IMG/VR virus record: IMGVR_UViG_3300028591_000113
Coordinates: 1-46,086 of that record
DNA from: a virus
Taxonomy: Duplodnaviria > Heunggongvirae > Uroviricota > Caudoviricetes
Reading direction: 5' to 3' (one strand)
Length of the DNA stretch: 46,086 nt
Shown piece by piece: positions 1 through 46,086 of this stretch. A program made the position numbers and the translations under genes. Each line of letters starts with the position of its first letter. The stretch's first letter is position 1. The notes beneath the pieces were generated by a model. The model saw only the letters and a program-made list of their open reading frames with translations. It searched no databases and was not told the DNA's origin.

Positions 1-362
1 TTGGACCTTCAGGACCTTCTTCACCTTGAGGACCACTTGGACCTTGAGGACCTTCTGGACCTGTAAGACCCATAGGACCTGTAAGACCACTTACACCTCT
101 AGGACCACTTGGACCTTGAGGACCTTCTGGACCTGTAAGACCCATAGGACCTTGAGGACCTTCTGGACCTTCTTCACCTTCAGGACCTGTGAGACCACTT
201 ACACCTCTAGGACCACTAGGACCTTGAGGACCTTGAGGACCCGTAAGACCCGTTGGACCATCAGGACCAGTAGGGCCTGTTGGACCAGTAGGACCTGTTG
301 GACCAGTAGGACCTGTAGGACCAGCAGGACCAGTTGGACCGCTAGGGCCACTAGGACCAGCT
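1..362 (-). repeat. Gly-X-Y collagen repeat tract with internal duplications
   Basis: Period-9 GGT CCT/CCA NNN repeats on the minus strand; a block of about 48 nt recurs near 34 and 104. Confidence 0.95.
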
Positions 363-988
363 TCGCTACTATAAAAAGGTTGAACGTATATACGTGTAAA
401 ATCATGACTAAAACCGCAAATACTCCAATATTTGCGTGGTTGTCCTGTTGTATTACCAAAGAAATCTCTTCGAGTATTAATATCAGTGACATCTTCAATA
501 ATAATATCACCAATTTCTGGGATAATAATATTGCCACCAACTATCTCATCTCAATTAAAAGCAATACCATATTCATCCAAATCTGCTCAATAAGCATATT
601 GATTATCAGAACCATATGAAATATGATCTGAAGTGAAAGTGAATCCTGAATAAGTGATAACAATATTATCAATAAATTTATATCTTTCACTAGGAGAAAT
701 AGAAGAACTAGAATTATATGTATTAATATAATAAAAATTATCAGTACCGTTCCAACTTGAACTCATTGGATTATATCTATATGGATTATCTGGAACAGGA
801 TTTGGTGTACTTTCAGAAGAAGTATTCGCATTACCTTTTATAACTAAATTCGTTTTTGTATTAGAAAAAATTTGAAAACGATTCGCTGCTCCAATCGCTG
901 AATGAGAGGAAGGCGATGTATTTCTTCGTATTAAATTTATATATAAAAAACTACGAGCAGTAGTATAATATGTTTTTAATGCACCCAT
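1..988 (-). CDS. Collagen-like tail fibre protein, 3' end runs off the window (code 4)
   Basis: ATG at 988. The frame continues through two in-frame TGAs (587, ~543) into Gly-Pro-X repeats ([28 protein letters not shown]...) to the window edge. Confidence 0.85.
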
Positions 989-991
989 AAA

Positions 992-1984
992 CTACTCTCC
1001 TAAACGTTTTTTAAGGTCTTCAACCTCCTTAGTTAATTCTTGAACTGCACCTAATAAAACATAAATAAGTTTAGATTCACGAATCATCATAAAATCACCA
1101 TCTTTACCAGTGGCGTTTTTATTATCAACTAAAGAAAAGCCATCTATATCTATATCTTGTAATTCTTGCGCAATTAGACCAATAGTACGTTGTGTTTCAT
1201 CTGTTTTATAATTAAAACTGTAAATTTGTACTTTTTTAATAATATCTAAAAAACCACTATTAAGTTTGTTAAAGTTTTCTTTTGCGCGTTTATCAGAAGT
1301 AGCATTAAAATATAATGCTTGACAATAGTTATTAATTTTTACATAATCACCAACAAATAAACTATAACCAGTTTGCGGTGTATTATTTGTAGTGATTGTA
1401 GTTGGTCCTAAAATAAAACTTTTTGGATAATCACTCAAATAACCTAAATAAGCAATTACTTGTTTGGTGTCGCTTATTTTAGTACTAAATTGTATTCCGC
1501 TATGTCCATGAATTTCTAATCAATCATAGCTTTCATCTGAATAAATTCAAGAAACATATTGTAAATCATAATCGTGATCATCACTATCATAATATCGTTC
1601 AAAATAAATGCCATTAGAGTTATTCATGTAAATATCTCTATCATGATATGCTGTTCGATTTAAATAAATATCACTATTAAAATAATTTTCACATTCAAAA
1701 GTATTTTTTACCTTGGTAGCAACTAATGAACCGCAAACATAACCATTTAAATTGGCAACTAACGTATCAATTAATTTACCAGTTTCACTGTTATGTTGAA
1801 AAACACTTCCTTGGGAAGGGTTGCTAGTAAGTAAGGCTAATTTTGGCATATCTGCAGAAGTAATGTAACCACCATTCGGTGATAAACTTTTGCGCGACCA
1901 TTCAATAATAGAAAATACATTTTGTGGAGTTCCACCATTGTTTTCGCCATTAAAGCCTTTTAAATGTTCTCAATATAAAGCCAT
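992..1984 (-). CDS. Tail fibre/spike protein with C-terminal intramolecular chaperone (peptidase S74-like) domain, 330 aa (code 4)
   Basis: SD GAGG then ATG 1984; 3 in-frame TGA; ends TAG. The C-terminus SDKRAKENF...YSFNYK...IGLIAQEL...LIYVLLGAVQELTKEVEDLK matches the S74 autochaperone pattern. Confidence 0.85.
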
Positions 1985-2010
1985 AATATTACCTCACTAT
2001 ATTCATATAA

Positions 2011-2039
2011 ATTATGCCGTATAAAAAAGAGGAAGTCAA
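2011..2039 (-). promoter_or_regulatory. sigma70-type promoter TTGACT-N17-CATAAT overlapping the upstream terminator
   Basis: Minus-strand hexamers at 2039-2034 and 2016-2011 with a 17-nt spacer. Confidence 0.6.
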
Positions 2040-2054
2040 TTATTTAACTTCCTC
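2023..2054 (-). terminator. Rho-independent terminator
   Basis: GAGGAAGT/ACTTCCTC stem followed by a T-run on the minus strand, just after the large tail gene. Confidence 0.75.
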
Positions 2055-2064
2055 AGTTATACTA

Positions 2065-5000
2065 TTAACGAATAAGTTTAACAATACTTTGTAAGAGCTT
2101 ATCTTGATACTTAATTGAATTAACTGTTAATGAAATATCCGTATCTTGTCTTAAATTGTAACTAATATCACTAATAAAGAGATATTGATTTAATGCACGA
2201 TAAGTTTCATCAACAGCATCATAGTAGTCAGAAGTGTTAAGAAGAATACCATCACCAATATGTAACTCTTGTCCTTCGTAACCACTTAATGATGCGGCGT
2301 CAATAACTGTGATATTATAATTCTTTTCTGGAGAACTATAATCTTTAAAAGCTAATTGTGCCATCTTAAGTAGTTGCTCTGATGAGCGCGCATCTTTATT
2401 TTCGTAAGTGTTTTCTAAGAAAATGCCTGGATAACGCGTGTAAAGCATTTGTCATAGTCTTAATTTTTCATCAAGTTTTCTTTCATATGCCGGTGCTTCT
2501 ATGTTATGATATTTTGTTAATAATAAATATAATTGCATAGCATATAGTCCATCATAATACTTATAAATTTTTTGTTGGCTATCTAATGTGCGGATTAAGT
2601 TTTTATGCTCTGTTCCGCCACCCACTGGATAATAATAAGTACGAACTGCATATTTTTGAATGGTGAATTTACCTAAATTGGTTTTTGGTATATCTGTAAA
2701 AATATGTTGAATAGCATTAATAACTGCTGGATTATCTTTTAAGAAATCAACTTGACTAATTTCATATTCTTCTTTATCACATTTTTCATTAATGTTTGGG
2801 TGATAATTAAATAAGATACCATCTAATGTTGTTTTTCCCTCATATTTATATATTTCAACTTCAGGAACAAATAAGGAAGATAATAACACATTTCCATCTT
2901 GATTTACTTGTCATATTGAAGAGAATCAAGCATTATTATTTGTTGCCGCGTCAATTTGCCAGTATTCAGGAATAAACCATTCACAATAGTGACTGGCTGT
3001 ATAGGCTTGCATTCATTCAGTAGTTAATTGAGTTTCAATAATCATAGCTTTTTCTGCGATTAGAGGAAAATCTAAACGATTATGGAAATGGTATCAAAAA
3101 GTACCATTAGACATTTTGCCTATATCATAGTGATTAACACGATGACGTGTGATAATAAATTTATATCCAAATAAACTAATTTCTTGACTATCTGTATCCA
3201 CATTCGCATTAAAAGTAGTTGTAACTTCATCATTAAGTGTTTTATCATCAATTATTAATTTTTCTTCTTCATCGATGTGATATGTGCGCAAACAAATTTT
3301 AAACTTATCTGGAGTAATTGTTGCGCTACCATCTCTGAACTCTGCCGCATTTATTTCAGTATTGCTCATATAATAGTAGCGACGATCTGTTAAGCGCTTA
3401 TGAGTTTGAGGATCTTCAAATAATATTTGCGCTACAGTATAAGTGCGAGAGTCGATATCATTTTTAGCATACCAATGTAAATTAATATCTGTTCAATCAA
3501 AATCTGCGGTAATATCTTCAACTTTGGTTAATTGATTGTCTTTTTCAGCAACAAAGAATAAGTCATAAACTGTAGTTTGTCTTTCTGTGTGATAAATAGG
3601 AGAAAGTTCTATTTCACTACTAACTAATTGACGATCATTATTCAAATGATAAACACGACCATTTACGTCTTTTCAATTGATAGTAAAATTATTTGGATTA
3701 TGAGTAGTTAATGTCGCCGTAGTATTTGAAACTATTAGTTTTTCAAAAGGTTCCAAATGTAAAGCGTAATAAGTAATCGGATTTTCTAAAGGATATTGAG
3801 AATTTCCTGAAATTTGGAACTTAACATATGTAGAATCGGCAAAACCTACAGTATATCCAGAGGCTTCCATTTTATCACGATAATCTGCTCATGTTGGATT
3901 ATTATTAAGTTCTTCTTTAGAAAAGACACCAGAGAAATTAATTTCTTCTCTTAATTCTACTAATGGATAGAATTTAATTGCGCCAAAGCGTTCTGGAAAA
4001 TTACTACCAATAACAACAGTATCTTTTAAAAATTCAGCCGGAACTCAAATATATGTGTCTTTTGGGTTAATGCCTTCGTTTTGTCTGCAGAAACGCGCAT
4101 ATCTATTATTAATTCAATAATAATCATGCTTTGTATTGGCGTCGTTATGATAAATATCAGCTCTTTCTGCAGCCGTTAAGATTTTACCCTCATTATCGAA
4201 ATAAAATCCGTCATAAGTAGCATTGATATAATTATCCATTACATCATAATTTAAATTGCTATGAGCAAGTGAACCTTGACTATATGTAGCAACAATTTCT
4301 TGATAGTAATTAAAATAATGTTTGTAATTACTATGATTATCAAAATCTAGTCAATCATATCAATTATCATTTGCTCATCATGTTTCAGTAAGACCACGAA
4401 TAGTTAATTCACTATCTTGTTTTTGTACATAATTAACTCAATGAGAATCACCCTTTAAGTACTTGTTGATTTCACCTAATTTTTGAGTTTTATCTGGATC
4501 TGATGATTTACCGCGTGCTTCATTATAATCAAATTTACTTCAATTTTCTCCATCATAATGAGACATATTAAAGGTTGTATCGTCTTTTTTGCCTCAATGT
4601 GCATATTTATGCATACCACCAACAATCGCGCCGGTAATACCGCCAATAGTGCAAAGAGGACCTGCGCCTGGAATAATAGTATATGATAGTAAAGCAAATA
4701 AAACGCCTCCAGCTATTGCCCATCCTTTTGCTGTATAATCTTCATAATGAACAAAATATTTAGAATTCTTTAGAGAAGATAGTACATCATTATAAAAACG
4801 TGTGATAGAAAATGACGCAGATGTATCATTTAGATTATTGCTTATAATAGAAGTAGCATTTTGAGCATAAGATAAAAACGGAACCGCATAAAATTTTCTA
4901 TATAAGTTATCAAAAGCAACTTTTTCTTCTGCAGTTTGATCATGAGATTCTGTAATTTTATGATAAAAATCTCCATCACGTTCATAATAAGGATTGCCTT

Positions 5001-7872
5001 TTTCATCTAAAACACTGAAAGTATAATTTAATTGATTGGTTTCGGTATTTTGTTCTGTTGTATAAGTAATTAAATAATCATAGATATATAATTCATCAAT
5101 CGGTGACATTGATTTATATAGTTCTCAAGCGGTAGTGACACCAAATTGCTTTTCCATGTATTCTATCTTTAAATCAGGATTAACTTCTGTTAAAATTGAT
5201 ACCGCTGGTCAACTAATAAAATTTAATTTATCTGCTACAGTTTTATAATTTGTACGTACCCAATCAAAAGGCACTTTTAAATCTGTATCACGTACATAAT
5301 ATCCTGAATTATGATTATCGCGTAAGAAAAGTTTTACAATTTCTTGATAAGAAAGTCTAATATATTGCTCTTCGTTTCCAAAATTTGTAATTCTTTCTTT
5401 AGGTGGCACACCAAAAAATTCATTATATTTATTATAACTTAAATAATAATTATCCGCCGGATTGTAATGATGTGTATTATTAACTGGAGTTAATTTACCC
5501 TTTTCAATCATTGGAACAAAAAATTCTTTATAATTAAATTTATTGGGAAGTTTTTGTTCTATGTATTTTCCATTTATAAAAGTAAAAACAGGAGAAATAA
5601 CAAATGATTCACTATTATCGGTTCCTTCATGATGAATAATTGGAGAATTACTATTAAGTAAATCTCATTTAATTGCACCGTCAAAACTAATTAAATAATT
5701 ACTTGGAATGTGTGATTCTTCTTGATTTTGAATTGTATAATAAACATCATCTAAATATGAGGTTGCACCTGCAGAAAAGATGTTTTTATCTTCAAAATAT
5801 TTTCTAAAATTATACATATGTTGAAGAAATCTTTGTTCTGCAGAGAAAAATTTATTAAATCTATCGCTAATAATGTTATTAATACTAAGCAATCCATTTT
5901 CTTGATTATCTGCGTTATCAGATTCAAATAATTGATGATAAGTATTAATAAATTCACTTATGTTGCTACTTATCATACCACTTTTTGTATATGGTTCAAC
6001 TACACTTGCATAGAAGGTTGCACCAAGTGTATCAGTATCTGCTTCAAGTCTGCTTAAAATCTTTGTGCGTTCATGAAGAGCATAATAATAAGCATTTGCT
6101 AAACACATTAATTGACCATTAATTATGCGCAAACCATTTAATAATCAAGTCATTAAACCTTCGTATTCATATTTTGATAAAATGCCTTGACGGACGAAAT
6201 AATTAAAGTCCATAATTTTATTTTCAAGTCATGGACAAGATTCGGCAATGCGCGCGAATTCAAGTTCTTCATTTGTATAATCACGAGTAATAGTGAAAAA
6301 TAGAGTATTTAAGTTTAAACGTTTAGTGTTAGAGTCATTACTTGGTCTTTTTATTAATAAAAACCAATTATTATCATTAATTTCTCTGGTAATGATTTCA
6401 TTTTGTTTAAAAATTTGTATATCATTACCATTAATATAAGCAAAACAAATTGCATCATTGCTCTGTAAGCTATTAATGTTAATAAAATTCGTTGGGCCAG
6501 TGACAAAAGAAGTAATGTTATTTTGATCTTCTCAATAGAAACGAATTTTATTATAGTAACTTTGTCATTTTAATTGATTAATTTGTGCTTTTCAATATCT
6601 TTGATCATTAATTTCAATACCATCTGTATTTGGGTCTTCATTGTCATCAATTAAATAATATTCCTGACTATTGCTGTCTAATTTAAAACGAAAATAATCC
6701 AAAGATTTATCTGGTTGGTAAGTATATCCATAATTTTCACCTTTAACGACATCAGTATAAAAACCATTATAATACTTAGTGTCTTTTCAATCATTAGACA
6801 TAAAAAGCGCATTAAAGAAAGAAGGTAATGTAGGAAAAACACTAATTTCTTCATCATTTCATGTTGTAGATTTAATATTTAAAACAGTAGTAAGGGAATC
6901 CCCTGAAAAATTTAATCCAAAACTTTGAATATCTCTTAATGGAGAGTAAGTTAAACCACTAACTTCAGGATTTTTAGTAGGACTAAAAAAGAAATATTTA
7001 GCATATCTAATAGGATCTCCAGGACGAGCTGGATTAAAACTTTCTAAGCCTTCCACAACACTAAGTTGTAAACCTAAAGTTTCTGCAACTGCAATTAATG
7101 CCGCATTAGCGCTAACATTAGAAGCAGAAAAAGGAAAAGTTTCATAAAATTCTGCATATGTTTTAGTATTGTAGATAGGCTTAATAATTTTATCTACTTG
7201 ATTTGAATTACTGTTAATACCAAGTGGAACTGTGTTTTCAACTGTTTCACCTGGAGCATTAAATTCATGTAAAACACCATTAGTGTCTTGATAAAGACCT
7301 TTTCATAAAGGTAAATACTTATAAGTAATATAACAATCATGCGCGATTTTTTCAGCCCATTTATCTGCACTTAAAGCACCAATAAAATCTGCGCTAGTTT
7401 CGTCATTAATTAAGGTATAACCGTTATTTTGACGGTTTAATTGATAAGTAAAAGAGTCTTGGCAAGTGACTTGATAAACAATAGAAGTGTTGTTAAAATT
7501 ATATTGAATTTTATTTACAGTGAATAACTTACGATTTCTAAATTTATCTTGGAGTTCAATTTGAACACCAGTTCTTAAAATACGTGCAAAAGGATTTTCA
7601 ATTCATTCTTCATCAATACAGACTTTATCATCCATACTAAAAGTAAGTTCTTGTTGTCCGTTTTTGTGAGTTGCAAGTTTTTCATTATAAGTATATGCTA
7701 CCGTATGAGTTTTTAAAACATTTGTTTTATCTTTATTGATTTTAAATTCACTTTGTTGATCTTGATAATCTGTAATAACATGAAAAAGATAGGTTTCTGT
7801 TTGATTTGTTAAATTATCATTGAAAACCATATCATTATTAGGAACGATTAGACTAAGTTTAAATCTTGCCAT
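2065..7872 (-). CDS. Large tail tip/central tail protein, 1935 aa (code 4)
   Basis: All ORF-track fragments 7603-7872, 6859-7056, 5665-6132, 5209-5511, 4594-5109, 3673-3870, 3094-3369, 2452-2889 and 2065-2448 share one frame, separated by TGA (about 30 in total); ends TAA. Position downstream of TMP/Dit supports the product call. Confidence 0.8.
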
Positions 7873-19297: not shown

Positions 19298-19318
19298 CCG
19301 ATTAGTTCAATTTATCTC

Positions 19319-34165: not shown

Positions 34166-34182
34166 ACGGAAAAACCTTCCGT

Positions 34183-34223
34183 CCTTAGCCAAGCCTTAAA
34201 TGTAGGTTAGGGCTTGGCTAAGG
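34183..34223 (+). other. Long hairpin with TGTAGGTTA in the loop (terminator or processing site)
   Basis: CCTTAGCCAAGCC/GGCTTGGCTAAGG arms. A similar hairpin lies at ~33,409-33,453 (CCTCTTAAAGA/TCTTTAAGAGG). Confidence 0.6.
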
Positions 34224-34308
34224 GCAGACGGAAAGTGGTGCAAACCACTTGCAAGCAACCCTTAAAAATGTTATAATAGTAGCGTAGAAAGAAAGGTAGG
34301 AAAAACAA

Positions 34309-34794
34309 ATGAAAGATTACGCAGACGGAAAATTAAACATCTATATTGATATGGATGGCGTGCTTGCTGATTTCTTCGGCGAGCCAAACAACCTCAAAAG
34401 GTTTGAGACGGAAAAGGGCTTCTTCCGTAGGTTAAAACCCTTCAAAAAGAATGTCCAAGCGGTTAGAAAGTTAATCGCAGACGGAAAACACAATGTGTTT
34501 GTCTTATCGGCAAGTCCAAACGAACGCGCTGATACCGACAAGAGATTATGGTTAGCGCAATATATCCCCGAACTCGAGACGGAAAATGCCATTATTATGA
34601 GAAATGGCGAAAACAAGACCGACTATATGAGAACGGCAGACGGAATTCTCTTTGATGACTACGGCAAAAATATCCAACAATGGTTATGTAAAAATCTCGG
34701 TTGTAATAGAGCCGTAAAGATTAGGACAGACGGAGACATAGCCGATGGACTTAAAGCCATTCACTTATTCCCAAATGCATTGATAAATGCGTAG
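34309..34794 (+). CDS. HAD-family 5'(3')-deoxyribonucleotidase-like protein, 161 aa
   Basis: IYIDMDGVLADF, VLSASP, K..WL, ILFDDYGKNIQQW motifs. Confidence 0.85.
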   Translation: MKDYADGKLNIYIDMDGVLADFFGEPNNLKRFETEKGFFRRLKPFKKNVQAVRKLIADGKHNVFVLSASPNERADTDKRLWLAQYIPELETENAIIMRNGENKTDYMRTADGILFDDYGKNIQQWLCKNLGCNRAVKIRTDGDIADGLKAIHLFPNALINA

Positions 34795-34878
34795 ACGGAA
34801 AATGACACTAGGGGCTTGAATTGAGCCCCTAAGTGTGATATAATGATAGCGTAGCGAAAGAAAGGTAAGGTAAACAAT

Positions 34879-35061
34879 ATGCGCGAATACATTAACACAC
34901 AAACAGGAGAAATCATACACACAGACGGATTTCGTTTACACGCATACAAGGTCTTAAAGAACGGAGACCACACAACAAGACTTGGAGATGTAATTTCTCT
35001 AAAGAAATATAGACGGAAACAAGCCCGTCAAGCCGCCAAGCATCTGGATGCTCTGTTGTAG
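34879..35061 (+). CDS. Small hypothetical protein (60 aa)
   Basis: Own promoter and SD AAGG. Confidence 0.65.
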   Translation: MREYINTQTGEIIHTDGFRLHAYKVLKNGDHTTRLGDVISLKKYRRKQARQAAKHLDALL

Positions 35062-35315
35062 GTTAAAACTTAGACGGAAATCAAGCAAGCCAGACGGAAT
35101 CCGTCGTGGGGTGAGACGGAAGTAGGTTAAGAATATCAAGCAGACGGAAACTGAAAAATACCCCTTGCAATTCGCTAAGAAAGAGTTTATAATTAGTAGT
35201 GTGAGGTAAAGAAAAAGATAAAGAGAACCTCGCAGACGGAAAATGAAAAAAGTGGTTGAATACCCCACTTAAAAATGATATAATATATATGTAAGAAAGG
35301 TAAGGTAAAAAACTT

Positions 35316-35549
35316 ATGACAAAGAAAACAACAAAGAAAGCATACGAAACAAAGGTCTCAGACGGAAGAATTGAAATCAAGTTAATCGTTCCAACCACAG
35401 ACGGAAAGGCGCATACAGCCAGCGCACCAAACCCATTCGTGTGTCAAGTGGAAGACGCAGACGGAAAAATGGTTATGAAACAATTAACCAAGAAACAGAC
35501 GGAAGCCTTCTTGTTTGACCAAATCAAGCAATACATTAAAGCCCAATAG
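35316..35549 (+). CDS. Small hypothetical protein (77 aa)
   Basis: Own promoter and SD. Confidence 0.7.
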   Translation: MTKKTTKKAYETKVSDGRIEIKLIVPTTDGKAHTASAPNPFVCQVEDADGKMVMKQLTKKQTEAFLFDQIKQYIKAQ

Positions 35550-35649
35550 GGCAGACGGAAATAAGTAAAAACTACTTGTTTCTCTAATGTAGATATGATA
35601 TAATATCTATGTTAGAAAGATAAGTAAAGGAAAGGTAGGGCAGACGGAA

Positions 35650-35910
35650 ATGAAAAAAGTTGTAATGTATGGCAAACATAGTAAAATTGCATTATACACT
35701 GGTAGTGAGACGGAATGTAAAAGATACATTCTAGGTATATGTGAACCGCTCGCAGACGGAAGACGTATCTATCGTAAGTTAGATATGCCAGACGGAACAG
35801 TCTATGATATAGGGCAACCCGTTATGTATCAAATTGTTGACGCGGCAGACGGAGAAATTGGTATCTACAATGAGCCAGACGGAAATCAGCCACCGATAAT
35901 AACGGGCTAG
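35650..35910 (+). CDS. Small hypothetical protein (86 aa)
   Basis: Own promoter; AGACGGAA abuts the ATG. Confidence 0.7.
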   Translation: MKKVVMYGKHSKIALYTGSETECKRYILGICEPLADGRRIYRKLDMPDGTVYDIGQPVMYQIVDAADGEIGIYNEPDGNQPPIITG

Positions 35911-36411
35911 ACGGAAATGAGAAAAAACCACTTGTTTCTCTACAAGTATTATGATATAATACTTGTATAGAGATAAGTAAAATGCTTATCCAAGTTGTCT
36001 TAAATCCTCCTTACAACTACATGCAGACGGAAACAAGAAAATCCCTCTTGTTTCTACATAGGTATTATGATATAATACTTATGTAGAGATAAGAAAGTTA
36101 GTAAGTCCCACAAAGAAGTGGGCAGACGGAAATCTCAAAAAGGTCTTGAATATCATTGAAAAAAATGATATAATAAAGACACAAGAGAAAATGAAAGAGT
36201 TGTAAGTCGCTTGAAACCAAGTAGGGCGCAGACGGAAATCAAAAAAATCTCTTGAATTGAAATCGCATTTATGATATAATAAATGTGTAAAGAAACTTAA
36301 CCCATCTTCCACTTTGAAAAGGAAACGGGCAGACGGAAAACTGAAAAACCACTTGAAAGATAATTCAAGTTATGCTATAATATCTATGTAAGATAAGAAA
36401 GGGGAAAAATT

Positions 36412-36687
36412 ATGGCAGAAAAGAAACAATGGGAAATGAACGAAACCCAAAAATCATTCGTTGAAATCTTAAGAGCAAATAGGGAAAACTACCCAGACGG
36501 AATGACCTTAAGAGAAATCAAAAAGGTCAGTGGTATCGCCTTCAAAACAGGTAGCATTAACACCTTAAAGACCAAAGGTCTTGTCAACACAGACGGAAAA
36601 CGTGAGTTCGTTGCCGATATCGTGTATGACAACGAAGTCATCGGTCATAAGTCCTATGCCGATACAGTCTACGCTCTCGTGGACTAA
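36412..36687 (+). CDS. Winged-helix-like putative DNA-binding protein, paralogue 1 (91 aa)
   Basis: Helix-helix-helix plus beta-wing pattern (MTLREIK...FKTGSINTLKTKGLV...VYALVD); clearly homologous to 41182. Confidence 0.65.
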   Translation: MAEKKQWEMNETQKSFVEILRANRENYPDGMTLREIKKVSGIAFKTGSINTLKTKGLVNTDGKREFVADIVYDNEVIGHKSYADTVYALVD

Positions 36688-37089
36688 TCGGTAGGCAAAG
36701 CCCAGACGGAAGGGCTTAAATGCCCTTCCCCCATTACAATGGGTTCAGACGGAATTTAACTACCTACCTTTCACCCGACTGAACCTATTGTAATGGGTGG
36801 GCACGCTCACCCAGACGGAAATCGGTTCTTCTAGTATACCACTCGCCTACGGAAAAGGAGAAAAGACTAGACGGAATTGTTTGGCTAACCGAGATTAACC
36901 AACCCCATGCCGTAGATATGGAACTAGACGGATGACGATTTCACCACTTTACCAAGAGCGCAGAAAGGGTTTAGAACACAACTAAGGATAAATGTGCGTA
37001 TTGGTCTAACTGAGCCGGAAGTAGGTTAGACCCCACGAGACGGAAAACATTAAAATCTCTTGTATCTCTATTGTTATTATGATATAATA

Positions 37090-37312
37090 ATAACATAAGG
37101 AGAACCCATTAAAGAGTTTCCACTACCACAACTGTGTGTGAAGAGGTTACCAAGTGAGCGCGTAGACGGAAAACTTTGACGAAAGTTTTTAAGGGGCTAT
37201 GTCCAAGACCAGAATAGGTTATCTAGATTATATAGCAGACTATCACACAACTATATAACTGTTGCCTTGCGGTAGACGGAAACTCTTTAATGGGGCGAAA
37301 TGAGAAAACTCC
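37090..37312 (+). ncRNA. Candidate ~200-nt structured small RNA
   Basis: Promoter at 37060-37088, no ORF, perfect 17-bp closing helix 37105-37121/37278-37294, internal hairpins. Confidence 0.5.
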
Positions 37313-37596
37313 AGACGGAAGCGAGTGAACTTCCCTTAAAATCACTCCAGTTAATTGGTTGCTGACCTAACCATCCGCGCAGACGGAAACCTCCTGCCCA
37401 TCTCCATTACTTACCATATCCCTTAATGTCGTTATTAAGTAGGTTATGAAAGTTGGAAAGTTGAAACTCACAGACGGAATAAGGATAACAACCTAAACGG
37501 AGACGGAATTAGAAACAAACTACTTGTTTCTAATAGGTATTATGATATAATACTTATATAGAGATAAGTTAAAAAAGGAAAGGAAGGTAGACGGAA

Positions 37597-38304
37597 ATGA
37601 GAAACTATAACACCTATCTAAAAGGTATGGAAAAAGGAAACAGCGAAAAACTATTCTTCTTAGACAAAATTAACCTAGACGGATTTAACACCATCATTGA
37701 CTTCGGTTGCGGCAAAGGTGATATATTGAAAGCGTGCGCAGACGGAAAGCGCTTACTCATTGGTATTGACCACGACCCTATTATGCGAGAAATCGCGCAA
37801 AAGAATGTGCCTAGTGCGACATTCTTACCTAAGTTAGAAAAACATATGCTAGACGGAAAAACTCTCATTATCTTCTCGTCTGTCCTTCACGAAATTGAAG
37901 ACTACTGGACGGAATTAGAGAAACTCCTCAAAGGTAGTCATGCAACAGTAGTCGTAAGAGATATGCGCTTTACTGGGACAGACGGAACATTAGACAAGAC
38001 GGAATTGGCTAAAATCGTTCATAAGTCTAACCCACATATGCTCGCTGAGTTCGTTGAAAGATATGGTTTGAGTAGACGGAAAGACCTCTATCATTGGCTC
38101 TTAAAGTATTCTTATGTTGACAACTGGGAATTAGAACTCAAAGAAAACTATTTCAGTTTTGATTACAGCAAACTCTTTGCGCTTGGTAAAGTAGTTTATG
38201 AAAATAACTATACACTAGCGTTCAAGAAAAAGAAAGTTAAACAAGATTACGATATTGATTTAACAGACGGAACACATACTCAGTTAATTATTAAGTTAGA
38301 CTAA
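37597..38304 (+). CDS. Class I SAM-dependent methyltransferase, 235 aa
   Basis: IIDFGCGKGD motif I, LIGID, IIFSSVLHEI. Confidence 0.85.
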   Translation: MRNYNTYLKGMEKGNSEKLFFLDKINLDGFNTIIDFGCGKGDILKACADGKRLLIGIDHDPIMREIAQKNVPSATFLPKLEKHMLDGKTLIIFSSVLHEIEDYWTELEKLLKGSHATVVVRDMRFTGTDGTLDKTELAKIVHKSNPHMLAEFVERYGLSRRKDLYHWLLKYSYVDNWELELKENYFSFDYSKLFALGKVVYENNYTLAFKKKKVKQDYDIDLTDGTHTQLIIKLD

Positions 38305-38318
38305 AAGGAGACGGAATT

Positions 38319-38552
38319 ATGACCTTAGAATTAACCTATAAAAGTGAAGGCACACTCAATGTCAACATTGATGAATGTGTTAAAGATTATAAACGACTAC
38401 TTGCAAACGGAAGCGATTGCACTGTTGAAGAATACGTTGATGACTTTTGGGCGGGATTAGATGACCCTATCTATTACTGTGATAACAACGAAGAATTACA
38501 GACGGAAATCTGTAATGCGATGAAAAAACAACTCGCCTTTGAAATAAACTAA
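38319..38552 (+). CDS. Small acidic hypothetical protein (77 aa)
   Basis: SD AAGGAG merged with GACGGAA. Confidence 0.7.
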   Translation: MTLELTYKSEGTLNVNIDECVKDYKRLLANGSDCTVEEYVDDFWAGLDDPIYYCDNNEELQTEICNAMKKQLAFEIN

Positions 38553-38567
38553 AAAGGAGACGGAATT

Positions 38568-38771
38568 ATGAGAAAAGTTTATGCGCTACTTGTAAAGAAA
38601 AATCATACCGACCACGGTTATCTCCCTGTTGCAGTTCAATTCTCTTTCAATAAAGAAGAATTAGACGGAATTGCGGAAGCCATTAACAATCAAGTAGACG
38701 GATGGGGTTCTGCAAAAGTGGAAGAAGTAGACGGAAGCGTTGCTGAATGGAACTTCCCACATCCATACTAG
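38568..38771 (+). CDS. Small hypothetical protein (67 aa)
   Basis: SD AAGGAG merged with GACGGAA. Confidence 0.7.
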   Translation: MRKVYALLVKKNHTDHGYLPVAVQFSFNKEELDGIAEAINNQVDGWGSAKVEEVDGSVAEWNFPHPY

Positions 38772-39083
38772 ACGGAAATGAGTGAAACTACTTGTTTCCT
38801 TAATGTAGATATGATATAATATCTATGTTAAAGAGATAAGTTAATCTCTAATCTACCATGACCAAGACGGAACAAGTCGACTAACCGTTGCGGGGTACAA
38901 TCCAAGGTCAGACGGAATTGTGAAAGTGAGTAGCGTGCCGCACTGGCATAAGTCGCGTGAAAATGGACACACACGGTAGACGGAAAATAAAAATTGCCTA
39001 TTTACAAGCAATTAAAAGCGTGCTATAATTAAGGCACAACAAAGGTAAGAAAAGAAAAAAAACGAAAGGAAGGTCAGACGGAA

Positions 39084-39701
39084 ATGAAAGTATTAGTTCT
39101 TGACACTGAAACATTAGGGGTCGCCGACCCATCAGTCTACAACTTTGGTTATCTAATTTATGATACCGTAGACGGAAAAACACTAGTAGAAAGAGATTAT
39201 ATCTCGACGGAAATCTACGACAACCACCGCGAAATGAGTAAGGCATTTTATAAAAATAAAATCCCACTCTATGAACAACGCTTAGCAGACGGAAGTTGTA
39301 AGAAAATGAAATGGTCTTATGTCTTGCGAATGTTCAAAAGGGACATTAACAAGTTTAAGCCAGACGGAATCTTCGCTTACAATAGTGGCTTTGACTTCCG
39401 CGCCATCGCAAAGACTTGCGAAAAGTTAGGGACTAAGACTAACCCTACATCACACGGAATTAGGGACATTTGGAAAGGTTTGACCGACCCGTTGATTACC
39501 TCAACTCCTGAGTATCAAGATTTCTGCAGACGGAATGGTTATATGACCAAGCACGCTAAACCAAAAGTTAGAGCGACCGCGGAAATTGTATACCGCTACC
39601 TTACGGGGCAGACGGAATACGAAGAAGAACACACTGCTCTTGCTGATAGTAAGATAGAATGTGTTATCCTACAAAGGGCGTTGGCAATTGCCAGCGCCTA
39701 G
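39084..39701 (+). CDS. DEDDh 3'-5' exonuclease, 205 aa
   Basis: VLVLDTET, FAYNSGFD, HTALAD motifs. Confidence 0.9.
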   Translation: MKVLVLDTETLGVADPSVYNFGYLIYDTVDGKTLVERDYISTEIYDNHREMSKAFYKNKIPLYEQRLADGSCKKMKWSYVLRMFKRDINKFKPDGIFAYNSGFDFRAIAKTCEKLGTKTNPTSHGIRDIWKGLTDPLITSTPEYQDFCRRNGYMTKHAKPKVRATAEIVYRYLTGQTEYEEEHTALADSKIECVILQRALAIASA

Positions 39702-39717
39702 ACGGAAAGGAGTAATT

Positions 39718-39939
39718 ATGGTAAAATTATCTATTACATTAGGCGATGATAACAACAAAGAATATCGCAAAGAAATTGAAGTAGAAGTAGACGGAACCAC
39801 CGCTCTTCTTATTAGAGACCGTTGTCGCACAGCCGACCCTGATGACTATGGTCGCGCGTGGGATAATATGCTCTATGCTATTGAAACACAATACCCAGAC
39901 TTACCACGAGATTGGTATGTCTACCACATTGAAAGATAA
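39718..39939 (+). CDS. Small hypothetical protein (73 aa)
   Basis: SD AGGAG favours ATG 39718. Confidence 0.7.
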   Translation: MVKLSITLGDDNNKEYRKEIEVEVDGTTALLIRDRCRTADPDDYGRAWDNMLYAIETQYPDLPRDWYVYHIER

Positions 39940-39951
39940 GGAGACGGAATT

Positions 39952-40362
39952 ATGTTAATTAAAGTTAAACAACCAGACGGAACAATAAGAGAAATTAACC
40001 TCAAAGATAGCGATATCCTCGAGTTCGCAGATTGGTGGAAACTTACACCACTCTCACCACAGACGGATGTTGATGATGCTTTCTATGAAGCCAACCAAAT
40101 TATTAGCGAAACCTTGGCTAATGAATATCCAAAAGACTTAGAAGATTATGGTTATGCTGAATGGGAATACGTTGAAGAAGACGGAATTGACTACCACGAT
40201 GTGTTCCATGATTACTTCCATGAAGTTATCAATGATTGGCAGACGGAAAGTAGAAAAAACTACTTCTTAGAACAACTTGATTATGGTTATGCCGACCTTG
40301 AATACTTCAAAGAAGATGATGAGTATGTCTACTTCCGCGCAAAACGAAGTGAGTTCAGATAA
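39952..40362 (+). CDS. Very acidic, aromatic-rich protein (136 aa), DNA-mimic candidate
   Basis: About 35 D/E residues with many Y/W/F; SD GGAG. Confidence 0.7.
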   Translation: MLIKVKQPDGTIREINLKDSDILEFADWWKLTPLSPQTDVDDAFYEANQIISETLANEYPKDLEDYGYAEWEYVEEDGIDYHDVFHDYFHEVINDWQTESRKNYFLEQLDYGYADLEYFKEDDEYVYFRAKRSEFR

Positions 40363-40396
40363 GAGAGACGGAATTGTCTCTCTTTTCTTTTTTTTT
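40363..40396 (+). terminator. Terminator closing the motif-rich early unit
   Basis: GAGAGAC-GGAATT-GTCTCTC followed by a long T-run. Confidence 0.85.
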
Positions 40397-40439
40397 ATGG
40401 ACGGAATTCCGTCTGGGCGTTCCGTCTATTCATCTTCCG

Positions 40440-40930
40440 TCTGCCATTGTAGGTTAATTGATTTCAATGATTATGTTGCTATTCTTTCCCGACAATCTTG
40501 TTATCCTACTTTGAAGTTAACCTACTTCGCGCCGTGCGGTTTGTAGGTTAATGGTCGCGGGGTGGGGCCCCAAATGTAGGTTAAAGAACCTTTAAGCAGC
40601 AGCAGCTATAAAGGATTTTTGGGACCTCGTAGGTTAAAAATTGGGGTTGAAAAAATTTTCTGTAGGTTAATAATGAACTTTTCCTTGACATTTCCGAATG
40701 TAGGTTAATACAGATTCCGCCTGCGGCGCGGTTGTAGGTTAAGTAGGTTAATTAAAGCAGCAGCAGCCGCACCATATTGCATATTTGGGGTTAACCTACA
40801 CTTTTGTGGGTTAATTTAGTTGTTAATTAGTACTTGACATAGGATCTTGTAGGTTAATAAAGTTAACAACTTTTTATAATATGTTTGTTGTTAGAAATTT
40901 TTCTGGACAAGATCGATTGTAGGTTAATAA
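40440..40930. repeat. Non-coding cluster of about 12 TAGGTTA (usually TGTAGGTTAA) copies in both orientations
   Basis: Plus-strand copies near 40449, 40545, 40577, 40630, 40663, 40700, 40735, 40743, 40850, 40920; minus-strand copies near 40519 and 40792. Confidence 0.9.
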
Positions 40931-40950
40931 AAAAATAAGTGAAGTTTTGC

Positions 40951-41151
40951 TTGAACTACCCGAACGGGTGTGCTATAATTATTTATGTAAGGTGAAAGAA
41001 GAAAAAGAATTAGAAAAAAATAATTCAAAAATGTCTTGACCGATACCCCAAAAATATGATATAATATATATGTAAGGTAAAGGAAGAAAGAAATTAAGAA
41101 TTAAAATCTAATTAAAAACTTCTTGACCTAACACAAAAGTTATGATATAAT
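40951..41151 (+). promoter_or_regulatory. Three tandem sigma70-type promoters upstream of winged-helix paralogue 2
   Basis: TTGAAC-17-TATAAT (40951), TTGACC-18-TATAAT (41036), TTGACC-17-TATAAT (41123). Confidence 0.75.
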
Positions 41152-41181
41152 TAAAGTATAAAGAAAAGGAGAAAATTAATT

Positions 41182-41445
41182 ATGGCTAACAAAAACACTT
41201 GGCAAATCAACGACACTCAAAAGGCTTTCTTAGAAGCCTTAAAGGCTAACAACGGTAAGGCTACCTTATTTGAATTAAACTACTTCAAGGGTTACAACTT
41301 CAAATCTGGTTCCATCAACGCCTTAATCGGTAAGGGCTTAGTCAAAGCCGAAGATGAAGTCACCTACGAATGTGACAAGGTCTACAACGGCGTCAAAGTC
41401 GGTACCGTTAAGGTCACTGCTAAGGTCTACGAATTAGTAGACTAA
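41182..41445 (+). CDS. Winged-helix-like putative DNA-binding protein, paralogue 2 (87 aa)
   Basis: W.IN.TQK.F.E.LKAN...TL.E....FKSGSIN.L..KGLV...VY.LVD shared with 36412; strong codon bias. Confidence 0.7.
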   Translation: MANKNTWQINDTQKAFLEALKANNGKATLFELNYFKGYNFKSGSINALIGKGLVKAEDEVTYECDKVYNGVKVGTVKVTAKVYELVD

Positions 41446-41468
41446 TAGTAGGGTAACCGAAAACTCAA

Positions 41469-41496
41469 AGGGGCAATAGCCCCTTTTTTTATTTTT
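41469..41496 (+). terminator. Rho-independent terminator
   Basis: AAGGGGC-AATA-GCCCCTT followed by a T-run. Confidence 0.85.
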
Positions 41497-41756
41497 ATGT
41501 TTTTAACCTACAATCGATCGGCTTTTTACCCGACGGAATTAACCTACAAATTATGTGGGTTAACCACCTTCCCCGAAATGTCGATCGTCACTTTTATGCA
41601 CTTTTTGCATGGAACCGCGCATCGTATAATCTTTAGTGAAGCAGCAAAAAAGGCTGGATTAAGGCAGCAGTTTATGGCATAATATATATGTAAGGTGAAA
41701 AAAGGAAATAAACAAAACCTTATGAAAAATAAATTAGCATAACATTGAAAAAGTTA

Positions 41757-41785
41757 TTGACTTAACTCGAAAAGTGTGCTATAAT
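41757..41785 (+). promoter_or_regulatory. Promoter TTGACT-N17-TG.TATAAT driving the ORF-less GC-rich segment
   Basis: Near-consensus hexamers with extended -10; no credible SD/ORF downstream. Confidence 0.8.
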
Positions 41786-41794
41786 TATTATACA

Positions 41795-43390
41795 AGGTAA
41801 GTAAAGAAATAAATTATTTCTTTCAAACCCCCTGTGCAACAGCTCCCTACTCGGCGTATACTGCACATTAAAAAACAAAGAAGAGAGTCGAAGCCCACTG
41901 AGCAGACAGGGCAGCGCGAAAGGTCCTAAAGTCTGCTCCCTAACATAAGTTGGAACCCCATGACCGGCAGCCGCAAGGCGGGGGCAACGTACCTCAGAGA
42001 AATCGCCGAGCACGGGCTTAAATTCCCCGAAGCAAGAGGCAGGTTGATTCCCTGCAACTCTTCCTTATGTATTCCTGTGTGTGTTCCAGATGTTCGGACA
42101 CCCTATGCGTCAAGGTAATGGCGCAATTGATGGCCGCCCTAGCTAGGATAGTTCGGTCTAGCAGAAACTAGATGGGCGAGATTAAGTTCTCGTTACGGGT
42201 GCAAATCCTCGAGTGGTCCCAAAACACCCACGCAGCAGTGACCAGGGTGAGTACTAAGACGTCAAAACGTGAAAGCCCCTGCTGTACCGCGGGCCAACAG
42301 CCCCAAGCTTAGATATTAACGCGGTATACAAAAGATTGACAGACCTTGGGAAATCCAATGATAGCGACGGACTGCGGTTCTAACTACAGAGAATAAATAA
42401 GGCTCGCCAGCGGCGACTTGGATAGGCTTAAGAGACTAAACACCTGGACGATGAGCATTGCGCATGCATCTAGCCAAAGCGACTCTCGGAGTTGGCGAGA
42501 TCCAACTGGGTAGGATAGACCCCAATCATTCCGACGCAGCGTCGTGCACTGCTCCTCCAACAAGAATGGGGGATGGACAAGATGAATAAGGCAGTGGTGA
42601 GAGTCCACTTTAAACAACCGTTTCTGCACAAAGTCACTCAGCAGAAGAGTTAATCTGCCGTTAGACACAAACGTAATATGTATGTCTCGACTGCCAGAGA
42701 TAAAGGCTAATAAGTCCATTGGCACGGACCAATGCAATTGGGAGAAACATAGTGTAATGGCTACATGAAACATAGTAGAGGAAAATCCATTAAACTCATC
42801 TGGCGTGGTGCGAAACCAGAAGATTGTCATCGTGGTTGGTGACCTATGTAGGCATGATAACAAACCTTATATTGAGGAGCCACTGAGGTAATGGTAACTC
42901 CGACGGCAATTGATAGTGCCTTGAAAACTATCCGCGCGGCAATGGTTTGTGACAGTCGCAACTGTCTAGGATCAACGATGTGCTGGCGACACCCTGACTC
43001 CTGGGTACGGAGATGCCGGAGAGAAACCGGCACAATAGATTTAGCGTGACTACGGGCGCTTAGTTCAGGGTGAGAACTAAAAAATGCTGAGCCGCTACCG
43101 ATGACGTGAGTCGGTGGGTTGTTCCCTTATCACAAAAACCCTCGTCCATGTGGGTATAAACAGAAATGGACGTCAGCCAGAGAAAGTGAACGCCAACGGG
43201 CGTACTGGAAGTCATGCGGCGGCAAACGTGTGCAGTATCTTTGCCGAGGTACTTATTGTAATCCCTTTGTCTTCGCTGTGGCGCGAAGATCCGCTGATAT
43301 CTGTAAACTATCAAACGTGCTGGCGCATCAGCGTTAAAAAATTAAATGAATGCGCGTATTTGAGACCTCTAGCCAGGTCTCTTTTTATTT
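41795..43390 (+). ncRNA. Candidate giant structured non-coding RNA (~1.55 kb)
   Basis: Promoter and terminator bounded, GC visibly about 50% versus about 30% in the flanks, no credible ORF, long-range helix 41850-41867/43229-43248, many GNRA- and T-loop-like hairpins. Confidence 0.72.
43362..43390 (+). terminator. Terminator ending the candidate giant RNA
   Basis: GAGACCT-CTAGCC-AGGTCTC followed by TTTTTATTTT. Confidence 0.85.
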
Positions 43391-43618
43391 TGAAAAAAAT
43401 TTTTCCGTCTGGATTATACCACGTTTTACGCAGTAAGTCCAGAGTTTTTTATTTAATTTTGGGAAGGAAAACTTTCGACTTTTTCCTCCCCAAATTTTTG
43501 TCCCGAAAAGTATATATTATTCGGGACATTTTTGTCCACTTAACCGGACAATTTGTCCGGGTGGTTAACCTACACATTTTGTGGGTTAACAAAGTAGCAG
43601 GCTTAATGTAAATTATAC

Positions 43619-43647
43619 TTGCAAAAGCCGAGTAAGTATGGCATAAT
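43619..43647 (+). promoter_or_regulatory. Promoter TTGCAA-N17-TG.CATAAT
   Basis: Hexamers with a 17-nt spacer upstream of the operon ending in the sigma gene. Confidence 0.7.
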
Positions 43648-43696
43648 ATATATGAAAGATAAGAAAAGCATTAAAATAAGTAAAGGAGAAAATACG

Positions 43697-43918
43697 ATGA
43701 AACTGAAAGAATTAATTAACGTGATGGATGACGACACAGTAGTCTGTGTTTGTGATGATTATGGCGCGATGACTGATGTTGCACCATTAAAAAACATTGG
43801 TGTTAAAAGCCTTATGAACCATTTAGACCGCGGAGTTAATCGTATTTACTTCGATAAAGAAGATGGTTCAATTACTATTGAATTGGAGGATTATGACTAT
43901 GAGGAAGGAAACGATTAA
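43697..43918 (+). CDS. Small acidic hypothetical protein (73 aa)
   Basis: SD AAGGAG favours ATG 43697. Confidence 0.7.
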   Translation: MKLKELINVMDDDTVVCVCDDYGAMTDVAPLKNIGVKSLMNHLDRGVNRIYFDKEDGSITIELEDYDYEEGND

Positions 43919-44048
43919 GGTTAAGGTTGACCAAACCAAATTACCAAATAAAATGCACTTTGATGTGCAACGTAAAACTCATGCGAACGTCTTCCGTGAC
44001 CGCACGAAGTATACCCGCAAAAGAAAACATAAAAACAAGGAGGATTAA
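43899..44048 (+). CDS. Small basic protein (49 aa) with ArfA/BrfA-like tail
   Basis: SD GGAGG; MRKETIKVKVDQTKLPNKMHFDVQRKTHANVFRDRTKYTRKRKHKNKED. Confidence 0.65.
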   Translation: MRKETIKVKVDQTKLPNKMHFDVQRKTHANVFRDRTKYTRKRKHKNKED

Positions 44049-44050
44049 TT

Positions 44051-44248
44051 ATGTTTGAAGTAAGAAAATTATATAACCACGAATTAGTCCAAACTTTCCC
44101 AACCTACCAAACAATGATCGACTTCATCTGTCAAGAGGCTATGGATTATAACTGCGGTATCTACCGCAAGTGGCCGCAAGATGGTGGCGAATGTTTTGAC
44201 ACGAGTAAGAATGTTTACTTCGTCAAAGAAATTCCCGAAATAGACTAA
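44051..44248 (+). CDS. Small hypothetical protein (65 aa)
   Basis: SD GGAGG; IYRK..DG...FD pattern shared with 35650. Confidence 0.7.
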   Translation: MFEVRKLYNHELVQTFPTYQTMIDFICQEAMDYNCGIYRKWPQDGGECFDTSKNVYFVKEIPEID

Positions 44249-44313
44249 ATAGTTCTGGAATAAACCCGCCAGTTATGTTATAATAAATTATAAAGAAAAG
44301 TAAAGGAGTAAAT

Positions 44314-44568
44314 ATGGCTAAACCAAAAGAATTCCCTGTTGAAGTTAAGAAAGACGTTAACGGATGTTGGTCCGGTAGCGCGTATTTATTAGATAAGAAA
44401 ACCAATAAAGTTTTCTGTGTTAGTTGTGCGGTTGCCCCAGGCACTCACAACAATCAAGCAAAACCACAAATCCGTGAAAGATTAAAAGAAATGTGTGCGG
44501 AACGCATGGAGTTAAATCCTAACTATGTGCGCATTACACACGAAGAAGCAAACAAAATAGATATGTAA
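44314..44568 (+). CDS. Hypothetical protein (84 aa)
   Basis: SD AAGGAG. Confidence 0.7.
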   Translation: MAKPKEFPVEVKKDVNGCWSGSAYLLDKKTNKVFCVSCAVAPGTHNNQAKPQIRERLKEMCAERMELNPNYVRITHEEANKIDM

Positions 44569-44579
44569 GGAGGAACAGC

Positions 44580-45413
44580 ATGGAAACATCATCATTCAAA
44601 GATTATTTAGTTCAAATCGCCAAGTATCCATTACTTCAACCAGAAGAAGAAAAGGCGCTTGCCTATCGTATTCGTGAAGGTGATGAAGATGCGCGTGAAC
44701 AACTCATCAATTCTAACTTACGTCTTGTCGTTTATCTCGCCAAGAACTACAAATCTAACTTCCTCGATTTAGAGGACCTCGTAATGGAAGGTAACCTTGG
44801 TCTTTTTACTGCGGTTGATAAGTTCAACCCAGACTTGGGCAATAGATTTTCAACTTGCGCCACACCATGGATTAAACAAGCCATTATGAAAGCAATTACT
44901 GAAAAGGGTAAGAACGTTCGTTTACCAGCCAACGTCTATCAAGCCCTCAACAACATGAAGAAAGCCGTTGATGCGCTCGCAGAAGATGGCATCTTATCAC
45001 CAACAGACGCGCAAATCGCCGAAAAGATGGGCATTGAAGAAGAAAAGATCGCCCTCTTAAAACAATGGAAGAAAGACACTGTGTCTTTAAGTGTTCCATT
45101 AGGTGATGAAAGCGAAGATACTCTTGAAGACTTACAAGCCGACCCTAACGACGAAAGCCCTGTTGCTTACGCAGAGCGTAAGATGGACGAAGAGTTCGTT
45201 AGAAAAATCTTGAAGGACTTGCCTGACAGAACCCGCACCATCATGAAAATGAGATATGGTTTGGGTGATGAAAATGACCCAGAAGATTGGCAAAGAGAGC
45301 ATACTTTGGAAGAAATTGGTGATTATTTAGGTCTAACTCGTGAAAGAATTAGACAAATTGAGAAACAAACCCTCCAAGAACTTAAAGTTCAGCTCGCAAA
45401 ATACGCTTATTAG
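44580..45413 (+). CDS. Phage-encoded sigma70-family RNA polymerase sigma factor, 277 aa
   Basis: Region 1.2 (DYLVQIAKYPLL), region 2 (NLRLVV...EGNLGL..AVDKF), region 3, region 4.2 (TLEEIG...TRERIRQIE). Confidence 0.95.
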   Translation: METSSFKDYLVQIAKYPLLQPEEEKALAYRIREGDEDAREQLINSNLRLVVYLAKNYKSNFLDLEDLVMEGNLGLFTAVDKFNPDLGNRFSTCATPWIKQAIMKAITEKGKNVRLPANVYQALNNMKKAVDALAEDGILSPTDAQIAEKMGIEEEKIALLKQWKKDTVSLSVPLGDESEDTLEDLQADPNDESPVAYAERKMDEEFVRKILKDLPDRTRTIMKMRYGLGDENDPEDWQREHTLEEIGDYLGLTRERIRQIEKQTLQELKVQLAKYAY

Positions 45414-45510
45414 TGAAAAATTACGACTAAAACCGTTAAAAACCACATAAAATACCGAGATAAAAGGCACAATTACTTGAAAAATTAACACCTTTTGAGT
45501 GAAAAAGTTG

Positions 45511-45539
45511 TTGCCTTTTATCTAAAAGTGGTATATAAT
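45511..45539 (+). promoter_or_regulatory. Promoter TTGCCT-N17-TATAAT
   Basis: Hexamers with a 17-nt spacer. Confidence 0.6.
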
Positions 45540-45720
45540 GTTAATGTAAAGATAAGAAATAAACTAAATGACTTCCTCCTAACCAGCCTTCTCGTGGCGA
45601 AGTCGTGAGTAGGATACTTCCGAAACAAATTGGGTTAAGGTGAAAAAAGTTGTTGCTTAACCGTAACAACTAGCGTAAGATAAAGATAGAAATAAAAAGA
45701 AAGGAAAATGTCTAACTTTT

Positions 45721-46086
45721 ATGGCAGAAAAACAATCAAAGTTCACAGTCAACGATAACGACAGACTTATCGCTGGCGCACTCAAAGGTACTGACGGCCT
45801 CACAATCGCAGAATTAAACGAAGCAATCGGTGGTAACTTACTCCCAATTCACTTCAACCATGCTAAAACTGGTGGTTTCATTGAAAAAATCGGTGAAAGA
45901 ACAGTTACAAAACAACGCCCAAGCCAAGTTTGCGTTTATTACTACATCAATAGTGATGTCGCTTCTGATGCTAAAGGCAACCCATGCAACTACTCTGATG
46001 CTCAAAACGCTATCTTAGCCGCTGCTGCTGGTATGGAAGGTGACTTCATCTTATCCGACCTCGCTAAAGCAATGGGTGTTGAAAAA
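45721..46086 (+). CDS. Tandem winged-helix-like protein, distant paralogue 3, runs off the window and is absent from the ORF track
   Basis: MAEKQSKFTVNDNDRLIAGALKGTDGLTIAELNEAIGG...GFIEKIGERTV...VYYY, then a second unit YSDAQNAILAAAAGMEGDFILSDLAKAMG; strong codon bias. Confidence 0.65.
   Translation, partial: MAEKQSKFTVNDNDRLIAGALKGTDGLTIAELNEAIGGNLLPIHFNHAKTGGFIEKIGERTVTKQRPSQVCVYYYINSDVASDAKGNPCNYSDAQNAILAAAAGMEGDFILSDLAKAMGVEK

Follow-up and report, generated by a model that had tools for sequence, protein, structure and literature searches.

Why does a phage read TGA as a sense codon in one set of its genes and keep it out of another, and why do a few genes within the first set keep it out as well? 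This question was raised by a stretch of 46,086 nucleotides (the window), which makes up bases 1–46086 of one 130,018-bp IMG/VR virus record (IMGVR_UViG_3300028591_000113), rated 100% complete. Its source is a virulent, siphovirus-like phage with a genome of about 130 kb, found in the sheep and goat rumen. An earlier note on the window held that its TGA codons are partitioned by gene class, and suggested a timed or stoichiometric code switch. The explanation we favour, with a probability of about 70%, is a cost of decoding UGA that rises with the expression of a gene, acting on top of a timed recoding of the late genes.

Partition of TGA codons and their reading as Trp

The minus-strand half of the window was fragmented when read in code 11 and became a tight operon of 24 genes in code 4. 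This late virion module (2–30734, minus strand) contained 69 TGA and 49 TGG codons, with eight of the 24 genes free of TGA, and is readable only if TGA is a sense codon. The early block (30871–46086, plus strand) consisted of 23 genes, the last reaching 46215, with non-coding stretches between genes. Its open reading frames (ORFs) were identical under codes 4 and 11, its stops were all TAA or TAG, and its 36 Trp codons were all TGG. The partition by gene class was therefore borne out (69/49 versus 0/36 TGA/TGG; Fisher test, p = 8e-12). The earlier tally of about 22 early genes with about 31 TGG and no TGA was right about the absence of TGA, and became 23 genes with 36 TGG on recounting.

The A/G codon pairs of Lys, Glu, Gln, Leu and Arg served as a control for composition. 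They ended in A in 76% of cases in the early genes and in 88% in the late genes. At 76%, the chance of finding no TGA among 36 Trp codons is 3e-23. Because A-ending codons prevail in the early genes too, the early/late split is not a by-product of base composition. Third-position GC content or mutation bias was likewise rejected as the cause, as A-ending codons dominated every block, and most of all the TGA-free head genes.

The rest of the genome was divided in the same manner. The region at 46–70.6 kb, which holds 32 tRNA genes, had 2 TGA and 89 TGG codons. The counts were mixed (27/47) at 70.6–88.4 kb, and reached 80/51 at 88.7–107.6 kb, where glycosyltransferase and other genes lie. The replication module (107.7–124.2 kb; gyrB, gyrA, Sak, DnaB, primase, RecJ and DnaE) had 0/50, and the last region (124.3–130 kb; holin, RuvC-like resolvase and the end of the tail genes) had 24/17. 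In every block the other A/G pairs ended in A at 76–88%. Over the whole genome, TGA was used by genes for virion parts, lysis, a resolvase and glycosyltransferases. The early and replication genes, 68 in number and with ORFs that did not depend on the code, all stopped at TAA or TAG; a 44-codon ORF at genome 53910–54044 may end in TGA.

A search with the capsid protein produced 12 related IMG/VR loci of 62–73% identity, two of them complete genomes (116 and 118 kb). The full set compared below comprised 16 genomes, namely this one and 15 related genomes or contigs, three of which were in genome bins. The replication genes were free of TGA in all three complete genomes. All 33 of their conserved Trp columns were TGG, while 39% of the conserved Lys/Glu/Gln columns had switched between A and G. 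This argues that purifying selection, rather than shared ancestry, keeps TGA out of the replication genes.

Two results established that TGA stands for Trp. In a GT8 gene all nine Trp codons were TGA, and these aligned with Trp residues of glycogenin and Skp1 galactosyltransferase, the structures of which are solved. Among the three complete genomes, 39 conserved Trp columns mixed TGA and TGG, and where the partner residue at a TGA site was not Trp, it was mostly Leu, Tyr, Phe or Ile.

The earlier note had seen neither a suppressor tRNA nor a release factor in the window. A tRNA gene with the anticodon UCA was found 43 kb beyond it, at genome 88929–89025 (ARAGORN; Rfam tRNA, 58.9 bits). This is the 33rd tRNA gene of the genome, and it stands immediately before the TGA-richest genes. 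It resembles tRNA-Trp in its A1-U72 pair, G73 and anticodon stem, and carries a long extra arm. It was conserved in relative G002 and interrupted by an insertion in relative G001. As for release factors, the absence of RF1 and RF2 held genome-wide: no such gene was found in the whole genome, and Pfam RF-1 gave no match. A PCRF match of 13.6 bits inside the tape measure gene was set aside as chance.

The tRNA(UCA) has an extra arm of about 24 nt that was identical in G000 and G002 and differed by one base in G001, though the acceptor stems differ. It contains a U-CCA-AA stretch that resembles the anticodon loop of tRNA-Trp. In G001 (115.7 kb) the insertion, of about 570 nt, lies in the anticodon loop and separates halves at 8389–8356 and 7789–7726; it matched no Rfam family at E <= 0.01. 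Two sigma70 promoters with 12 of 12 consensus positions were located about 1.2 kb upstream of the tRNA gene (genome 87633–87661 and 87755–87783). If these drive the tRNA(UCA), the suppressor would be made by the unmodified host polymerase.

The hosts likely use the standard code, since three bins with related, equally recoded contigs (labelled Erysipelotrichaceae, Mollicutes and Ezakiella) contained prfB, the RF2 gene, above the curated cut-off, together with an rpoB whose long reading frame is not interrupted by a stop. The absence of TGA from the early genes agrees with this.

Sparing of TGA in the bulk virion genes

Within the late module, four genes for bulk virion proteins had 0 TGA and 8 TGG codons, and the rest had 69 and 41 (p = 6e-4). 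All four are on the minus strand, with 0/2 TGA/TGG each. They are a 163-aa gene that immediately precedes the capsid gene, in the scaffold position (24325–24816; 0/31 over the 16 genomes), the major capsid gene (23260–24303; 0/38 over 16), a 168-aa gene after the capsid gene (22680–23186; 0/21 over 16), and a candidate major tail tube gene (19319–20080; 1/12 over 10). The first three, the head genes, together showed 0 TGA and 90 TGG over the 16 genomes.

About 45% of the Trp codons were TGA in the operon neighbours of these genes. The neighbours are the portal gene (26305–27867, minus strand; PHROG 2739; 3/3, and 18/36 over 12 genomes), the terminase large subunit gene (27880–29691, minus strand; PHROG 9 and 5909; 1/2, and 20/24 over 9 genomes), the ORF at 24833–26290 (minus strand; 2/1, and 23/19 across the clade) and the late-operon ORF at 20098–20826 (32/9 across the clade). 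In the 11 non-redundant genomes, all five conserved Trp columns of the three head genes were TGG throughout. The other late genes had 37 such columns, of which only 3 were all TGG and 33 were mixed (p = 7e-5 versus the head genes). The four conserved Trp columns of the portal all mixed TGA and TGG.

The claim that the high-copy virion genes use TGG exclusively was correct for the capsid, 22680–23186 and tube genes, and failed for the 171-aa gene that had been called an adaptor (22148–22663, minus strand). The latter was TGA-free in this genome only (0/3 here, 18/23 across the clade), and therefore falls outside the TGA-avoiding class.

Over 13 late genes compared across the clade, the TGA share fell as the A-ending bias rose (rho = -0.86, p = 2e-4). 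Mutation pressure alone would produce the reverse trend, and the observed one is typical of selection in highly expressed genes.

The capsid protein was identified by its fold. By sequence it had no Pfam match and nothing meaningful among the PDB sequences. On a structural model with a predicted local distance difference test score (pLDDT) of 61, every one of the top 50 Foldseek matches was a phage capsid, a virus-like particle or an encapsulin (E = 1e-6 to 8e-5), and we interpreted 23260–24303 from these model matches as the HK97-fold major capsid protein. A strong terminator-like hairpin (23212–23233, minus strand; nine pairs, seven of them GC, with a T run) lies directly 3' of the gene. The gene at 19319–20080 (PHROG 2729) probably encodes the major tail tube. 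It lies upstream of the tail chaperones and the tape measure gene, as in conserved gene order, and is followed by a terminator-like hairpin at 19276–19299. The best matches of its model (pLDDT 51) were tube or Hcp proteins, at a weak E >= 0.014.

A proposed cost of UGA decoding and other explanations

We propose the following course of events. A Bacillota host with the standard code would be infected, and the meaning of UGA would change during infection. The early genes, among them that of a sigma factor, are free of TGA, as are the island of 32 tRNA genes and the replication module, and could be translated by the unmodified host. The Trp-like phage tRNA(UCA) would then cause TGA to be read as Trp in the virion, lysis, resolvase and glycosyltransferase genes. 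AT-biased mutation would drive TGG to TGA wherever this is tolerated, and selection would remove TGA in proportion to the amount of protein needed, each UGA being decoded in competition with the RF2 of the host. The resulting TGA share would be 0 in the capsid, scaffold-position and tube genes, about 0.3–0.5 in portal and terminase, and about 0.8 in the tail fibre and the glycosyltransferases. The timing, the competition with RF2 and the expression levels in this scheme are what we infer.

The timed part of the scheme, and of the earlier suggestion, is consistent with all the tests made: with the standard-code sigma factor, the early promoters and the replication genes, and with the presence of TGA in virion, lysis, resolvase and sugar-transfer genes. 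The cost is favoured for several reasons. The bulk genes share an operon with TGA-bearing genes, so that the timing of transcription does not separate them. The fall of the TGA share with rising codon bias argues in the same direction, as do the least constrained genes, which are near the mutational expectation. In the 1935-aa tail tip or fibre protein (2065–7872, minus strand; 29/7), 81% of the Trp codons were TGA, close to the 88% A-ending share of the late module. A protein with 29 TGA codons can be made only if each of them is read through at roughly 90% efficiency or better, and this leaves little room for one to three TGA codons to set a copy number. Lastly, TGA was not concentrated at gene starts: the mean relative position was 0.50 for TGA and 0.51 for TGG. 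TGA as an early gate was rejected on this even spread.

Several points weigh against the cost. The bulk genes have few Trp codons, with five conserved columns in total. The ORF at 24833–26290 contains TGA, yet it is only 16 bp upstream of the TGA-free 24325–24816, with the TGA-free capsid gene next, so that any difference in cost between them would have to arise at translation. The GIY-YIG domain gene at 31145–32146 had 0/7 here but 4/6 and 8/2 in two relatives, and the 70–88 kb region mixes TGA-free with TGA-rich genes, so that the split is not cleanly two-phase. The link to hosts was through metagenome binning only. The RNA evidence from the libraries consisted of assembled contigs only, which cannot rank genes or show timing.

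The nearest competitor is that TGA is placed on purpose. As a general proposition, that TGA codons act as translational gates or attenuators and that a graded load tunes the yield of low-copy virion parts, we consider this doubtful. It draws on a 142-aa gene at genome 48326–48754, described below, which has one TGA at differing codons in three genomes. In a stoichiometric reading, incomplete suppression of UGA would actively limit the low-copy virion parts, and the number of TGA codons would set the copy number. This reading is slightly less credible still. As it predicts, TGA was missing from the genes of the bulk proteins throughout the clade, and those of the portal, terminase, tape measure and tail tip contained it. 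On the other hand, the yields would not scale with need. At a read-through of 0.9 per codon, one to three TGA codons were computed to cut the yield by 10–27%, and at about 0.9 or more the shift stays below 30%. The positions and numbers of TGA in the portal drift freely between relatives, and the sites are not placed early in genes. Non-virion enzymes (the GT8 genes and NrdD) carry TGA as well. Conventional controls also exist: one terminator follows the capsid gene and another the tube gene, and these suggest that abundance is set by ordinary transcriptional means. The stoichiometric half of the earlier suggestion thus stands as an association, conserved in the clade; as a cause it is weakened by the read-through arithmetic, the even spread of TGA and the rho of -0.86.

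Timing alone might also account for the bulk genes, if capsid, scaffold and tube had to accumulate before the suppressor tRNA became abundant. The bulk genes do resemble the early genes in their use of TGA. However, their place is within the late operon, 16 bp beyond genes that contain TGA, and they have no clear promoter of their own. They also show the strong preference for A-ending codons that is usual in late genes of high expression, and differ in this from the early genes. We regard this as improbable. Still more improbable is a mosaic origin, in which the modules without TGA came recently from standard-code phages and TGA has yet to accumulate. Recoded Agate phages are reported to have close relatives that use the standard code (Borges et al., bioRxiv 10.1101/2021.08.26.457843), and the tail region had a lower GC content (0.28–0.31) than the head region (0.38) and the early region (0.39–0.45). 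Against this, the same genes were TGA-free in 16 genomes that are just 35–80% identical at the protein level, and in which neighbouring synonymous sites had turned over. Least plausible of all is a code-4 host that reads UGA as Trp, which the earlier note had held would reduce the pattern to ordinary codon bias: one related contig was in a bin labelled 'Mollicutes', but that bin and the two others, weak as binning is as a host link, carry RF2 and an rpoB without in-frame TGA, and nothing in a code-4 cell would hold the early and replication Trp codons at 0 TGA of about 175 while A-ending codons dominate.

Genome context and known systems

Sequences nearly identical to this genome were present in DNA and RNA libraries of sheep and goat gut from 11 studies. 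Among four RNA runs compared, contig depth was higher over 19.3–20.7 kb and 22.4–26.8 kb, and no inference was drawn from it. A gene with collagen-like Gly-X-Y repeats on the minus strand spans both ends of the record (2–988 and genome 128997–130013). The assembly probably broke inside this repeat gene, and as both ends lie in it, the record is probably a permuted full genome.

In the late module, the identities of the terminase large subunit, portal and tape measure gene (10848–15536, minus strand; 8/2) were supported. The labels 'terS' (29691–30734, minus strand; 1 TGA and 5 TGG), 'protease' (24833–26290), 'decoration' and 'adaptor' were left with no supporting evidence. For the first three, PHROG gave matches to unnamed families or none. 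The counts given for individual genes (1, 1, 2, 3 and 8 TGA, and about 30 for the tail tip) were correct, the last being 29. The genes of an anaerobic ribonucleotide reductase, NrdD (1/6), and its activase NrdG (2/2) are inserted in the row of tail genes (16672–19018, minus strand), between the tube gene and the tail chaperones, and both carry TGA.

The early block contains about 15 strong sigma70-type promoters (32647–45539, plus strand), mostly with an extended -10 element (TGnTATAAT), in the gaps before plus-strand genes. No comparable enrichment was found in the late module. The phage RNA polymerase sigma factor (44580–45413, plus strand; PHROG 351, E = 5e-67; 0/3) is a standard-code early gene and can drive a transcriptional switch. 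The GIY-YIG gene adjoins the divergent promoter region. Many middle genes had no PHROG or Pfam family.

The only sizeable early ORF open under code 4 alone, 42891–43337, was rejected as a gene: it is GC-rich, and its counterpart in G001 is broken by stops, which indicated a non-coding sequence. It is part of a GC-rich stretch at 41795–43390 (51% GC around 42891–43337) that is kept in G001, has stops in every reading, and is flanked by a strong promoter (41757–41785) and a terminator (43362–43381). These features are consistent with a large non-coding RNA.

The 142-aa gene lies in the early block beyond the window and has no assigned function. In each of three diverged genomes it contained a single TGA, and the codon concerned differed in all three. 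From the sequences, this looks like selection for having a TGA.

Recoding of TGA in late genes is itself already known. The Agate phages (about 127 kb; cattle, pig and tortoise gut) are TGA-recoded, and an early-versus-late partition of codes is the published model for recoded gut phages (Borges et al., bioRxiv 10.1101/2021.08.26.457843), in agreement with the remark in the earlier note that late-biased recoding of stops occurs in other phages. As in Agate, TGA here means Trp in structural and lysis genes, the replication machinery keeps the standard code, a suppressor tRNA is encoded by the phage and TGA is abandoned as a stop; the ruminant gut source and the genome size are also similar. The likeness was judged by size, source and code. 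The TGA-enriched families named for Agate are an intron endonuclease, a tail protein and a membrane protein, whereas the GIY-YIG gene here is without TGA.

The TAG-recoded crAss-like and Lak phages (code 15) are also alike in that late structural and lysis genes need the reassigned stop, suppressor tRNAs are encoded and the hosts use the standard code. They differ in that TAG is read as Gln, the hosts are Bacteroidota and some encode release factors; in this genome TGA is read as Trp and no release factor is encoded. Avoidance of a recoded stop by a gene family was shown statistically for the prophage integrases of Garnet and Topaz (Borges et al.), as it is here. The integrase avoidance was explained by expression in the unswitched cell, whereas the avoiders here are late bulk virion proteins. 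In T4-like phages, late codon use is matched to the phage tRNAs (discussed in Borges et al.), and the 33 tRNA genes of this genome fit such a pattern. Unlike in T4, the disfavoured codon here is a host stop, and the penalty would be truncation rather than slow decoding. A literature search found no paper that states a capsid-specific avoidance, or a sparing of scaffold-position and tube genes, and the text of the Borges et al. preprint does not mention the capsid at all.

This genome offers a complete and well-resolved example of a probable code switch within infection from the ruminant gut, with 15 related genomes or contigs that behave alike. For annotation, it matters that such genomes are not described by code 11 or by code 4 alone, and that TGA-free capsid genes can hide recoding from marker-gene surveys. 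The genes of the most abundant virion proteins keep to the standard code inside a recoded late operon, which argues that reading a stop codon costs measurably. The distribution of recoded codons would then reflect both timing and expression level, and not a lysis timer alone.

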